Source: Eledone cirrhosa (lineage: Eukaryota). Taken from it: a stretch of DNA of 64,000 nt. Positions 39,001 through 46,900 of the stretch are shown piece after piece (within the stretch, counting starts at the first letter, position 1; each line of letters opens with the position of its first letter). The translations under genes and the position numbers were made by a program. The notes beneath the pieces are model-generated. The model was not told the origin of the DNA. It did not search any database and saw nothing but the letters and a program-made list of their open reading frames with translations. The DNA is taken from the NCBI GenBank assembly GCA_964016885.1, contig CAXHJY010000001.1, positions 248,001-312,000 of the forward strand. The letters are read 5' to 3'.

Positions 39001-41485
39001 GACTCACTACCATAACATAACCTCCGCATTCATCACCCATGTCTCACTACCATAACATATCCTCCACATTCATCACCCATGTCTCACTACCATGTAACAT
39101 AACCTCCACATTCATTACCTATGTCTCACTACCATAACATAACCTCCACATTCATCACCCATGTCACACTACCATGTAACATAACCTCCATATTCATCAC
39201 CCATGTCTCACTACCATAACATATGCTCCGCATTCATCACCCATGTCTCATTACCATAACAGATCCTCCACATTCATCACTCATGTCACACTACTATGGC
39301 ACATAACCTCCACATTCATCACCCATGTCTCACTACCATAGGATATCCTCCATATTCATCACCCATGTCTCACTACCATAACATATCCTCCACATTAATC
39401 ACCATATCTCACTACCATGTCTCACTACCTTAATATATCCTCCACATTCATCACCCATGTCTCACTACCATGTAACATAACCTCCACATTCATCACCCAT
39501 GTCTCACTACCATAACATAACCTCCACATTCATCACCCATGTCACACTACCAGAACATATCCTCCACATTCATAAACCCATGTCTCACTACCATAACATA
39601 TCCTCCACATTCATCACCCATGTCTCACTACCATGTAACATAACCTCCACATTCATCACCCATGTCTCACTGCCATGTAACATAACCTCTACATTCATCA
39701 CCCCTGTCACACTACCATGTAACATATCCTCCACATTCATCACCCATGTCACACTACCATGTCACATAACCTCCACATTCATCACCCATGTCACACTACC
39801 ATGTAACATAACCTCTACATTCCTCTCCCATGTCTCACTACCATGTAACATAACCTCCACATTCATCACCCATATCACACTACCATAACATATCCTCCAC
39901 ATTCATGACCCATGTCTCACTACCATAACATAACCTCCACATTCATCACCCATGTCTCACTACCATAACATATCCTCCACATTCATCACCCATGTCTCAC
40001 TACCATAACATAACCTCCACAATAATCACCCATGTCTCACTACCATAACATAACCTCCACATTCATCACCCATGTCTCACTACGATAACATATCCACCCA
40101 ATTCATCACCCATGTCTCACTACCATGACATAACCTCTACATTCATCACCCATGTCTCACTACCATGTAACATAACCTCCACATTCATCACCCATGTCTC
40201 ACTACCATGTAACATATCCTCCACATTCATCACCCATGTCTCACTACCATAACATATCCTCTACATTCATTACCCATGTCTCACTACCATAACATATCCT
40301 CCACATGCACCACCCATGTCACACTACCATGTAACATAACCTCCACATTCATCACCCATGTCTCACTACCATAACATATCCTCCACATTCATCACCCATG
40401 TCTCACTACCATAACATATCCTCTGCATTCATTACCCATGTCACACTACCATGTAACATAACCTCCACATTCATCAACCATGTCTCACTACCATAACATA
40501 ACCTCCACATTCATCACCCATGTCTCACTACCATGTAACATAACCTCTACATTCATCACCCCTGTCACACTACCATGTAACATATCCTCCACGTTCATCA
40601 CACATGTCACACTACCATGTCACATAACCTCCACATTCATCACACCTGTCACACTACCATGTAACATATCCTCCACATTCATCACCCATGTCTCACTACC
40701 ATGTAACATATCCTCCACATTCATCACCCATGTCACACAACCATGCAACATAACCTCCACATTAATGCCCCATGTCTCACTACTATAACATAAGCCCCAC
40801 ATTCATCACTCATGTCTCACTACCATAACATATCCTCCACATTCATCACCCATGTCACACTACCATGTATCAACCTCCATATTCATCACCCATGTCTCAC
40901 TACCATGTAACATAACCTCTACATTCATCACCCATGTCTCACTACCATAACATATCCTCCACATTCATCACCCATGTCACACTACCATGTAACATAACCT
41001 CCACATTCATCACCCATGTCTCACTACCATAACATATCCTCCACATTCATCACCTATGTCTCACTACCATAACATATCCTCCACATTCATCACCCATGTC
41101 ACACTACCATGTAACATAACCTCCACATTCATCACCCATGTCTCACTACCATAACATATCCTCCACATTCATCACTCATGTCACACTACCATAACATAAC
41201 CTCCACATTCATCACCCATGTCTCACTACCATAACATATCCTCCACATTCATCACCCATGTCTCACTACAATAACATATCCTCCACATTCATCACCCATG
41301 TGTTACTACCATAACATATCCTCCACATTCATCACCCATGTATCACTACCATAACATATCCTCCACATTCATCATCCATGTCACACTACCATGTAACATA
41401 TCCTCCACATTTTATCACCCATGTCACACTACCATGTAACTTATCCTCTACATTTTATCACTCATGTCACACTACCATGTAACAT
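1..41485. repeat. Satellite array A: about 1000 tandem monomers, mainly 42 bp (tc[a/t]cactaccatgtaacatatcctccacattcatcacccatg) and 40 bp (tctcactaccataacataacctccacattcatcacccatg), with 39/41/29-bp variants
   Basis: Periodicity read directly: 1-40 is a 40-mer and 41-82 a 42-mer. The pattern continues without interruption to ...actaccatgtaacat at 41485. Copy number estimated as length/41. The array runs off the left edge. Confidence 0.98.
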
Positions 41486-41620
41486 TGCACTTCATACACA
41501 CACATCATACAGCTTACCTTTCTTTTCTAGGGAAAAACCTTTTGCTGTCGACAGAGGTAGCAACTCCCTGAATCTTTTCTATCCTGTTTTTAATCTAGCT
41601 ATTATACTCACACCTAGGTA
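41486..41620 (-). mobile_element. Degenerate RTE-clade non-LTR retrotransposon (LINE) ORF fragment, C-terminal RT/thumb region
   Basis: Manual minus-strand translation from 41620: YLGVSIIARLKTG*KRFRELLPLSTAKGFSLEKKGKLYDVCV*SA, continuing in frame into MLHGSVT (41485 downwards). This fits the RTE-type pattern YLG...ARIxxGWxKFRELLPLL...KGxLYxxCVRSAMLxGSETW. Stops replace W (41579-41581) and R (41492-41494). Confidence 0.85.
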
Positions 41621-42231
41621 GCCTAAGTTAATATATATTATTATTATTTTGACAGGACTCTTCCGTTGTGTCAGACATCACAAACTCCCTATTGTTGGTC
41701 ACACAATAAAATGCTGGAATACATGAAAGCCAGATGTAGTCCATGGCCCATCTAAGAATTCAGTAGCTCCAATTTAATTCCTGACTTTGTTTGTGAGCAC
41801 CCATCCAACCCACGCTGTCAGGAAAAACATGTTAAATGAGGATGATCAATATAATGATTAGCCTTATTTTCCTGTTCTGTCACTTCATTACAGCTGTGTG
41901 TATTTTGAGCATTCCAACCTGTTTTTGTAGTGTTGTTTCTATAATGCTGTTTTGTAATTTCCAGGAATATCTTGAATGCAGTTTCATGTGGTATTAAGAG
42001 TTAAAGGGTCCCTATTTAAATCAATTCCTTTCAAAATAATTTGTTATAAGAACTTTTTTATTAAGTTATTTACAAATACTATTTTAATAATGAAATATAT
42101 GATTTTTAGTATTCCTTCAAGTTCTTCATTAATTAATTGGTATACAAGTATGTCATTATAAATATATGTATGTTGTTAAAAATATGACCACAAATGATTT
42201 TAATGTAATTTTCTTCTCAATTAAATTGCAG

Positions 42232-42388
42232 AGAATTCTATAAGATGGTGAGTGACTATAGTCTCATTAAAAATAGATTGAGTTCACAACCAAGAAGTAC
42301 TTTTTTTGTTCCAACTGATGAAGCTCTGAAGAATGTAAACCAAGAAAAACTTCAACAGTTAAAGAATGATGTAAAAAAACTAGACAAG
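42232..42388 (+). CDS. Internal coding exon (157 bp, phase 2 to phase 0) of a fasciclin/FAS1-domain protein
   Basis: Acceptor ttttcttctcaattaaattgcAG ends at 42231 and donor AAG|GTAATG starts at 42389. Open frame EFYKMVSDYSLIKNRLSSQPRSTFFVPTDEALKNVNQEKLQQLKNDVKKLDK contains a FAS1 H1 motif (consensus TxFAPTxxAF, here TFFVPTDEAL) and the following helices. It stops just before the expected ILxYH motif. Flanks are AT-rich and intron-like. Confidence 0.85.
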
Positions 42389-42568
42389 GTAATGTGCAGT
42401 GAAATAAAATCCTACATTGACAATACTGGAGAAACATATGGATCCCAAAATAACCTTTGCATTTTACTGAATTCTCTTTCCAATATTTATCAAAATTTAG
42501 CAATAAATATATTTTTTTATTCTTATTGCAAATCGTATTGAGAAATATAAACAGTACTGGGATAATGT

Positions 42569-43113
42569 TGTAGCACAATGGGTGTTGTGGTCACCAGTGT
42601 GGTAAAATGATGGTATTCTTGTTGGATTGTCTTGTCGACATAGATGTGAGGGAAGGTCCCTCGTCTATTTACCATCTTTGTATTTACAATATTCTTTTCG
42701 TCAGGTCGCCAATTCCAGCAGCATGGATCATCGATGTTATTGAGACACGAGTAACATAACAATGATTTCAACAGCAGAAATTAGAGATGAAATGTATGTT
42801 TATTTTTGTTGTAGCACAAATAATGTTTGTTAACTTATATGGTTGAAGTTACAGATAAAAAAAGGTTACAAAAGGGAATGTGCCATTGTGCCGGAAAGCC
42901 GGCGAGGCTAGAGGTGCAAAATCTCACCGTTACATTGTGCGTGTTGCTGGTTCGAAGTTCCTGGTACAAGAGAAAGATTCTTCAAATCTTTTCGGGTAAT
43001 TTCTCCCTCAGGGCGCGTAGGGATACATCCTCTTCTACTGGTGCTGATTGGCTGAACTGAGCCAAATCACCCACAGAGAATGTATGTGAGCCCGCGGAAT
43101 GTAGGTCACTACA
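42569..43113 (-). mobile_element. Probable solo LTR (Gypsy-like, 545 bp)
   Basis: Termini TGTAG (42569-42573) and CTACA (43109-43113) form a TG...CA inverted repeat. Identical 4-bp flanks ATGT lie at 42565-42568 and 43114-43117. The minus strand carries CCAAT (43051-43047), ATATAAG (42840-42834) and AATAAA (42804-42799) in LTR order. GC content is higher than in the flanking intron. Confidence 0.6.
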
Positions 43114-43117
43114 ATGT

Positions 43118-43206
43118 TGTCCTAATTTATAACACTGTTTAGACAAAACTGTCCTAATTTATAACTGTTTAGACAAAACTGTTCCTATTTACAGTACTGT
43201 TTAGAC
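43118..43206. repeat. Three tandem copies of a 27-32-bp unit (tgtcctaatttataac(ac)tgtttagacaaaac)
   Basis: Units at 43118-43149, 43150-43179 and a degenerate copy at 43180-43206. Confidence 0.9.
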
Positions 43207-43315
43207 TGTCCCATATTTTCAACAGAACTGTCCCATATTTTCAACAAAGTGTCCCATATTTTCAACAAAATGTCCCCCATATTTTCAACAAAATGTGTCC
43301 CATATTTTCAACAAA
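43207..43315. repeat. Five tandem copies of a 20-25-bp unit (tgtcccatattttcaacaaa)
   Basis: Units start at 43207, 43229, 43250, 43271 and 43296. Confidence 0.93.
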
Positions 43316-43904
43316 TATATTAGAGCTATACAAAATATTAGACGTGAAAGTGAGTCACCTTGGAAAATTTCGCAGTCGATGCTAATATTGTTTGAACTTA
43401 GTACTCCATTGGAATGGTATAATTGGAGATTTGTGTTCCACAATGATATATTAGGTTTCGAAAAGTTTGAAATTACGGGGGAAATTTTGAAGATGTCCAG
43501 TGATTTCAGACTCCATGAGTGCGGTATGCTGTCAAAAGCTTTTTTATAATTGATCCATGTGGAACTTAGATACCTGCACTTGTTATGACAGTTCTCAATG
43601 ATTGTAGGATTAATTAAGAGTTGACCTTTACATCCATTGGCACCCTTTTTGTTCAGTAGGGAAAATATTGCTCTCTTCCATAAATACATGTTTTCTCGGT
43701 GAAAATAGATGTTAAAACTTCATAAGTGGTGAATAAACAGGTTTGGGGTCAATAGTTTTTTGGTAGTAATACCACATGTTATCAGTCATGTAGTTTTTCA
43801 AGATCTTTCATAATTCCATTGAACAGCTTCACTAATATTTTGGTGCACACGAGAGCAATGAAAGTCAGAAATTTGTCACCCTATCTTTACCAGGAAATTT
43901 CCAC
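43316..43904 (-). pseudogene. Decayed reverse transcriptase fragment of a non-LTR retrotransposon, R2/R4 superfamily (R4/Dong-like), RT domains 0 to about 4
   Basis: Reading across frameshifts on the minus strand: KWKFPGKDRVTNF*L ... KILVKLFNGIMKDLEK ... ITCGIT ... PKNY*PQTCLFTTYEVLTSIFTEK ... FMEESNIFPTEQKGC ... GCKGQLLINPTIIENCHNKCRYLSSTWINYKKAFDSIPHSW ... IFQGDSLSRLIFCIALI. These correspond to the LINE RT motifs PGxD, NYRPI, DxxKAFDS and QGDSLSP. The catalytic YxDD is absent. Confidence 0.92.
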
Positions 43905-46900
43905 TTTGTCAGTGTCATCCTTTACTCTACTATTGAGATGTCTTTCTCAGTGTCATCCTTTACTCTACTATTGAGATGTTTTTTAATCAGTGCCATCCTT
44001 TACTTTACTATTGAGATGTCTTTGTCAGTGCCATCCTTTACTATACCATTGAGATGTCTTTGTCAGTGCCATCCTTTACTCTACTATTGAGATGTCTTTG
44101 TCAGTGTCATCCTTTACTCTACTATTGAGATGTCTTTGTCAGTGTCATCCTTTACTCTACTATTGAGATGTCTTTGTCAGTGTCATCCTTTACTCTATTG
44201 AGATGTCTTTGTCAGTGTCATCCTTTACTCTACTATTGAGATGTCTTTGTCAGTGTCATCCTTTACTCTACTATTGAGATGTTTTTGTCAGTGCCATCCT
44301 TTACTTTACTATTGAGATGTCTTTGTCAGTGTCATCCTTTACTCTACCATTGAGATGTCTTTGTCAGTGCCATCCTTTACTCTACTATTGAGATGTCTTT
44401 GTCAGTGTCATCCTTTACTTTACTATTGAGATGTCTTTGTCAGTGTCATCCTTTACTCTACTATTGAGATGTCTTTGTCAGTGTCATCCTTTATTCTACT
44501 ATTGAGATGTCTTTGTCAGTGTCATCCTTTACTCTACTATTGAGATGTCTTTGTCAATGCCATCCTTTACTCTACTATTGAGATATCTCTGTCAGTGCCA
44601 TCCTTTACTTTACCATTGAGATGTCTTTGTCAGTGCCATCCTTTACTCTACTATTGAGATGTCTTTGTCAGTGCCATCCTTTACTCTACTATTGAGATGT
44701 CTTTGTCAGTGTCATCCTTTACTCTACCATTGAGATGTCTTTGTCAGTGCCATCCTTTACTTTACTATTGAGATATCTTTGTCAGTGTCATCCTTTACTC
44801 TACTATTGAGATGTCTTTGTCAGTGTCATCCTTTACTCTACTATTGAGACGTCTTTGTCAGTGTCATCCTTTACTCTATTGAGATGTCTTTGTCAGTGTC
44901 ATCCTTTACTCTACCATTGAGATGTCTTTGTCAGTGCCATCCTTTACTCTACTATTGAGATGTCTTTGTCAGTGCCATCCTTTACTCTACTATTGAGATG
45001 TTTTTGTCAGTGTCATCCTTTACACTACTATTGAGATGTCTTTGTCAGTGTCATCCTTTACTCTATTGAGATGTCTTTGTCAGTGTCATCCTTTACTCTA
45101 CTATTGAGATGTCTTTGTCAGTGTCATCCTTTACTCTACTATTGAGATGTTTTTGTCAGTGCCATCCTTTACTTTACTATTGAGATGTCTTTGTCAGTGT
45201 CATCCTTTACTCTACCATTGAGATGTCTTTGTCAGTGCCATCCTTTACTCTACTATTGAGATGTCTTTGTCAGTGTCATCCTTTACTTTACTATTGAGAT
45301 GTCTTTGTCAGTGTCATCCTTTACTCTACTATTGAGATGTCTTTGTCAGTGTCATCCTTTATTCTACTATTGAGATGTCTTTGTCAGTGTCATCCTTTAC
45401 TCTACTATTGAGATGTCTTTGTCAATGCCATCCTTTACTCTACTATTGAGATATCTCTGTCAGTGCCATCCTTTACTTTACCATTGAGATGTCTTTGTCA
45501 GTGCCATCCTTTACTCTACTATTGAGATGTCTTTGTCAGTGCCATCCTTTACTCTACTATTGAGATGTCTTTGTCAGTGTCATCCTTTACTCTACTATTG
45601 AGATGTCTTTGTCAGTGTCATCCTTTACTCTACTATTGAGATGTCTTTGTCAGTGTCATCCTTTACTCTACCATTGAGATGTTTTTGTCAGTGCCATCCT
45701 TTACTTTACTATTGAGATGTCTTTGTCAGTGTCATCCTTTACTCTACCATTGAGATGTCTTTGTCAGTGCCATCCTTTACTTTACTATTGAGATATCTTT
45801 GTCAGTGTCATCCTTTACTCTACTATTGAGATGTCTTTGTCAGTGTCATCCTTTACTCTACTATTGAGACGTCTTTGTCAGTGTCATCCTTTACTCTATT
45901 GAGATGTCTTTGTCAGTGTCATCCTTTACTCTACTATTGAGATGTCTTTGTCAGTGTCATCCTTTACTCTACTATTGAGATGTTTTTGTCAGTGCCATCC
46001 TTTACTTTACTATTGAGATGTCTTTGTCAGTGTCATCCTTTACTCTACCATTGAGATGTCTTTGTCAGTGCCATCCTTTACTCTACTATTGAGATGTCTT
46101 TGTCAGTGTCATCCTTTACCTTACTATTGAGATGTCTTTGTCAGTGCCATCCTTTACTCTACTATTGAGATGTCTTTGTCAGTGCCATCCTTTACTCTAC
46201 TATTGAGATGTCTTTGTCAGTGTCATCCTTTACTCTACTATTGAGATGTCTTTGTCAGTGTCATCCTTTACTCTACTATTGAGATGTTTTTTAATCAGTG
46301 CCATCCTTTACTTTACTATTGAGATGTCTTTGTCAGTGCAATCCTTTACTCTACTATTGAGATGTCTTTGTCAGTGTCATCCTTTACTCTACCATTGAGA
46401 TGTCTTTGTCAGTGCCATCCTTTACTTTACTATTGAGATATCTTTGTCAGTGTCATCCTTTACTCTACTATTGAGATGTCTTTGTCAGTGTCATCCTTTA
46501 CTCTACTATTGAGACGTCTGTGTCAGTGTCATCCTTTACTCTATTGAGATGTCTTTGTCAGTGTCATCCTTTACTCTACTATTGAGATGTCTTTGTCAGT
46601 GTCATCCTTTACTCTACCATTGAGATGTCTTTGTCAGTGCCATCCTTTACTCTACTATTGAGATGTCTTTGTCAGTGTCATCCTTTACTTTACTATTGAG
46701 ATGTCTTTGTCAGTGTCATCCTTTATTCTACTATTGAGATGTCTTTGTCAGTGTCATCCTTTACTTTATTATTAAGATGTCTTTGTCAGTGCCATCCTTT
46801 ACTCTACTATTGAGATGTCTTTGTCACTGCCATCCTTTACTTTACCATTGAGAGGTCTTTGTCAGTGCCATCCTTTACTCTACTATTGAGATGTCTTTGT

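Follow-up and report, generated by a model that had tools for sequence, protein, structure and literature searches.

The question raised by this locus is where a 38-bp satellite came from. The window, by which we mean the whole stretch of 64,000 nucleotides that was analysed, consists of two satellite arrays and a 2.4-kb spacer, and a broken LINE reverse transcriptase (RT) gene abuts one of the arrays. The features on which the argument turns are these:

1-41478, strand not given: array A, units of 40-42 bp, about 1,018 copies
42232-42388, plus strand: likely exon of a fasciclin-domain gene, 157 nt (Pfam E 1.9e-7; AG/GT flanks)
43203-43315, unstranded: minisatellite of five 21-23-bp units, adjoining the LINE fragment at the end away from array B
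43316-43903, minus strand: decayed RT fragment of a LINE of the restriction-like-endonuclease type, corresponding to about residues 471-683 of the relative P0002 and truncated at both ends
43883-43903, minus strand: WKFPGKD, the non-LTR RT motif 0, immediately following the junction (in relatives the W is preceded by three further codons)
43905-43942, minus strand: first 38-bp monomer of array B, 13 codons when the G at 43904 is included, with a stop at codon 7
43904-64000, unstranded: satellite array B, 38-bp unit, 534.9 copies by TRF, continuing beyond the window end

We propose that the 38-bp unit quite probably derives from 13 codons of the dead R4/Dong-like RT gene beside it, a segment duplicated in place and then expanded to at least 535 copies. 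An earlier note on this DNA had put forward such an origin, an amplified 38-bp piece of the neighbouring RT ORF, and both the in-frame junction and a match to an RT helix at a gap of three codons speak for it at the level of sequence.

The likely fasciclin exon lies between arrays of more than 41 kb and more than 20 kb, so that the LINE fragment and arrays A and B may be intronic; the introns together with the LINE indicate a eukaryote, probably an animal. GC skew is extreme in array A, at about -0.8. Two adjacent minisatellites with a similar start (three units of 30-32 bp and five of 21-23 bp) fill 43111-43315 and begin exactly at the end of the LINE fragment. A search of 41300-44300 against Rfam was negative.

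The LINE fragment is a dead copy. Against P0002, an ORF of 1,223 residues, it falls into four pieces and shows stop codons, short deletions and three or more frame changes; eight codons are absent between two PK pairs. The frame at 43288-43719 is 57% identical to P0002 and matches RVT_1 with an E value of 7.5e-5, under the gathering score (the curated cut-off). Relatives were sought by word-based protein searches and a HMMER search and reach about 57-60% identity at best over a long RT stretch; neither kind of search found a protein recognisably of this genome's LINE family across the helix discussed below. As in non-LTR RTs, motif 0 (PGxD) precedes the core motifs of the RT domain; PMC4117753 gives the PGPD motif as motif 0. 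A profile of the relatives aligns with the solved R2 and L1 ORF2p structures, starting at the helix in front of PGPD.

This LINE family is present in multiple copies in the organism. We surveyed its copies in two contig runs and two RAD-seq runs, and of the contigs aligned to 43270-43985, 99 of 177 and 100 of 186 were less than 90% alike. None of the loose ends listed for this survey fell at the junction with array B. Between motif 0 and the following block (43650-43903) a sibling contig, too, falls short of the length expected from P0002, by about 37 nt, so some deletions of the fragment may be shared with other copies.

R4/Dong-like is a fair label for the fragment, a tentative one that draws on the motifs of its relatives. 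The clade is characterised by a single ORF with an RT and a C-terminal restriction-like endonuclease, by a diverged Myb/SANT-like domain in place of an N-terminal zinc finger, and by rDNA or (TAA)n microsatellites as insertion targets. Motif patterns were applied to the 36 full-length relatives (at least 1,050 residues): a CCHC knuckle is found in 33 of them, PD..D in 25 and KxxKY in 30, and none has the N-terminal zinc-finger pattern. A loose W-T-x-E pattern, to be read as a pattern match only, lies near most of their N-termini. The fragment's nearest full-length relatives resemble the R4/Dong clade as described in PMC7998251 in combining an RT, a CCHC knuckle and restriction-like endonuclease motifs with the lack of an N-terminal zinc finger, whereas the window itself holds only about 590 bp of RT, without ends, target site or endonuclease. 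An Atlas search returned only unnamed clusters.

At the junction, the reverse complement of 43905-43942 together with the G at 43904 reads DISIVE*RMTLTK and then continues in frame into WKFPGKDRVTNF*. This reproduces the reading DISIVE*RM(T/A)LTK-WKFPGKD of the earlier note, which had placed the first monomer in frame with motif 0. The satellite phase breaks sharply at 43904, and the sequence to the left has no monomer match. A contig built from reads, which matches 43516-43933 exactly and recurs in two runs of the same sample, enters array B by 30 nt, an overlap one short of the bridging rule applied; the sample may be the source of the assembly itself.

Does the monomer peptide represent the RT segment that would be expected before WKFPGKD? 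We built a profile from the 113 of 278 proteins that had the motif and 24 residues upstream of it (78 after redundancy removal). With a gap of three codons, which puts its last codon four residues before the W, the monomer peptide scored +9.5 bits in the Thr form and +12.7 bits in the Ala form; each of the seven remaining gaps gave the Thr form between -9 and -25 bits. With 50,000 shuffles and the best of eight gaps taken each time, p was 5.6e-4 for Thr and 4e-5 for Ala, and about 2e-3 for Thr if three frames are allowed. The relatives' own scores have a median of 17.9 and a minimum of 7.2, which puts the monomer at their low end, as expected of a decayed sequence. The peptide has 7 or 8 of its 13 residues in common with P0068 and P0038, and close relatives carry the helix and then WKSPG, as VITIEELRNALTKSHK-WKSPG in P0068 and EISVEEICVALGKTHK-WKSPG in P0002. 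In solved R2 proteins, too, this helix stands before PGPD. At the protein level the monomer would accordingly correspond to the helix before PGxD, as the earlier note had supposed, and array B shows the homology to a transposable element (TE) segment expected of a TE-derived satellite.

Further details of the earlier note are also supported. About three codons were said to be missing there, and only the three-codon gap scores in the profile; in DNA comparisons with three distant families a gap of 9 nt is the best of 16 registers. The stop was taken to replace a hydrophobic codon, and V, I, L, F or M stands at that position in 73 of the 78 relatives. Ala was held to be the likely ancestral residue at the Thr/Ala position, in agreement with the relatives (A in 36 of 78, T in 6; A in 29 of the 41 chosen because they have L and K in common with the monomer), but the junction monomer has Thr.

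A scan of the whole ORF that did not presuppose adjacency, with 76 strand and phase readings, about 1,210 positions and a P0002-anchored profile (198 non-redundant of 318 proteins), placed the monomer's top match at residues 455-467, in the junction phase and three residues before W471, where the remnant starts. The score of this match alone is unexceptional, being equalled by 110 of 400 shuffles for the Thr form and 11 of 400 for the Ala form, and shuffled monomers fell within 10 codons of W471 in 31 of 3,000 trials, which indicates that the helix region attracts matches. The case therefore lies in place, strand, frame and phase all agreeing, and not in the score. At the DNA level, one locus per family was compared for the three distant families; identities were 17, 17 and 16 of 39, or 50 of 117 (p 0.002), a weak signal that comes from distant families.

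These results bear on whether an unrelated satellite happens to adjoin a broken LINE, with the peptide match due to chance. The match is after all just 13 codons long, contains a stop and requires a gap, and its unconstrained score is, as noted, within easy reach of shuffles. Chance would, however, have to account for the concordance of strand, frame, phase and position, for the low p value of the Thr form even with the gap free over eight values, for the failure of all 3,562 control 39-mers from the spacer to reach the monomer's profile score (0/3,562), and for a nucleotide signal in the same register. The same profile scan yields nothing for the other repeats, a LINE origin being unsupported both for array A (equalled or beaten by 138 of 200 shuffles) and for the 23-bp minisatellite (by 24 of 200). 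We regard a chance abutment as very improbable.

The three distant families come from a search for the junction pattern in genome contigs, which returned nine loci, L009 lacking the helix. These nine loci are likely eukaryotic contaminants of MAGs. They (L002-L010) lie in bacterial MAGs of the GTDB collection that carry eukaryote-type LINE RT genes, seven of them in one Dehalococcoidia MAG, and host contamination is the likely reason for such genes there. A metagenome-contig match to the pattern (L001) was dismissed as chance, the contig being bacterial-looking, and 0 of 33 viral-contig matches were confirmed. The LINE family's own sequence across the junction was not found in metagenome, viral or genome contigs.

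Array B itself is a long, homogeneous head-to-tail array, as expected of a TE-derived satellite (at least 20 kb and about 535 copies). Its 534 units comprise 444 of 38 bp, 81 of 35 bp, which are without one 3-nt unit, and nine others. The 38-mers diverge from the majority by 3.9%, in contrast to the many family contigs counted above that are less than 90% alike. A comparison of unit types peaks at a lag of 173 monomers (45% of labels identical; no other lag exceeds 19%), which indicates a higher-order repeat of about 173 monomers or 6.5 kb, with a nucleotide peak at 6,487 bp. The part of the array within the window holds no foreign insert (largest anchor spacing 43 bp), and no monomer-like 38-mers occur elsewhere in 1-43903, the best match there being 20/38. 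We saw no sign of function in array B.

Codon 7 is a stop in all 444 full-length monomers, TAA in 434 and TGA in 10. The earlier note had argued that the LINE origin is hidden in the ORF track by a period that is not a multiple of three; the period does contribute, but it does not act alone, since the fixed stop codon hides the origin too. The same universal stop suggests that the founder monomer likely came from an already dead LINE copy, although homogenisation after amplification could also be the source of a fixed stop. Thr (ACA) is found in 215 of the 444 and Ala (GCA) in 205, both at about 50% along the whole array.

The monomer at the junction is a perfect copy of the satellite's majority type, with the Thr codon, and is no more LINE-like than the rest. 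This codon, likely derived, counts against a birth at this site. The monomer may instead have been born at another copy of the family, from which a ready-made array recombined into this one via the shared 38 nt; the family is multicopy, and homologous exchange would likewise leave a junction in register. Such a route needs an extra event, the universal stop fits a dead founder such as the copy at 43316-43903, and no second array is known as far as the window goes, so that we consider it unlikely. We give least credence to a third route, in which a non-autonomous LINE derivative spread an internal 38-bp tandem of which one copy expanded here. It has a precedent in the Ogre-derived satellites of plants (PMC7004042), but no relative has a repeat at the helix, the unit is coding sequence and not UTR, and none of the contigs among the pieces listed shows such a derivative.

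The preferred origin, duplication in place, would have run as follows. A LINE copy would have inserted in the antisense direction, probably into an intron, and then decayed. Once the stop was in place, slippage or microhomology repair may have duplicated 38 nt, and unequal crossing-over or conversion would then have expanded and homogenised the array, building the higher-order repeat. The 9 nt missing at the junction would have been lost plausibly between two lysine codons, like the other short deletions in the LINE copy.

A more specific form of this origin, in which the satellite is caught at its birthplace and an imperfect direct repeat of about 9-12 nt, spaced 38 bp apart in the dead intronic copy, seeded the first duplication, is one that we offer tentatively and think somewhat doubtful. 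When the monomer's last codon is read on into the next monomer it gives T-S-Q, where relatives have S-H-K, T-S-K or T-Q-K; the three residues before W in 41 relatives are S-H-K in 13, S-Q-K in six, T-Q-K in two, T-S-S in two and T-S-K in one. If the family had T-S-Q-like codons there, the LINE would have contained a short sequence twice in direct orientation, 38 bp apart. The signal is weak: an equally good score is reached by 9% of the 9-mers in the spacer and, for T-S alone, by 4% of 6-mers. Seeding by a short direct repeat is the model of Haber and Louis, cited in PMC3389668.

The first step from a single-copy stretch to a satellite is poorly documented. Array B is a good case study of initiation, homogenisation and higher-order-repeat formation because a large array here remains joined to its source sequence, with reading frame and breakpoint preserved, and because sibling LINE copies provide an outgroup for polarising monomer variants. 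Should the reading with birthplace and seed be true, the parent family would be an outgroup with which to date each step from the founder unit to the higher-order repeat. The array reveals neither a new function nor a new class of element.

Several known systems are comparable. Satellites derived from LINE ORF2 include PROsat of Phodopus roborovskii (L1 ORF2), HinfI/SCR1 of chicken (CR1) and Pvc 20 of seal (L1 ORF2), as compiled in PMC9659126; like array B they are tandem repeats with sequence from a LINE coding region. Array B differs from them in that its whole 38-bp monomer appears to be coding-derived, its donor is of the restriction-like-endonuclease type and the source copy is joined to it in frame; PROsat is described as similar to L1 over a small region only (PMC9659126). 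A literature search, mostly outside subscription journals, did not turn up any satellite described as derived from an R4/Dong RT.

Among human mini- and satellites, 23% are given as TE-derived, and known initiation models as explaining 6% of the TE-derived ones (PMC3389668). The human TE-derived minisatellites resemble array B as local tandem duplications of part of an inserted element; those for which PMC3389668 gives no known mechanism have mostly two units, whereas array B comprises 535 or more, with a higher-order repeat of 6.5 kb. The Ogre-derived satellites of Lathyrus sativus likewise form long arrays flanked by the parent element in a fixed orientation (PMC7004042). They are reported to have expanded from pre-existing tandem repeats in the 3' UTR of an LTR element (PMC7004042); array B, unlike them, appears to have been cut de novo from single-copy RT codons. 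TE-derived satellites, those from LINE ORF2 included, are thus already known, and array B is a new, well-preserved example, distinguished by its in-frame junction and its size.
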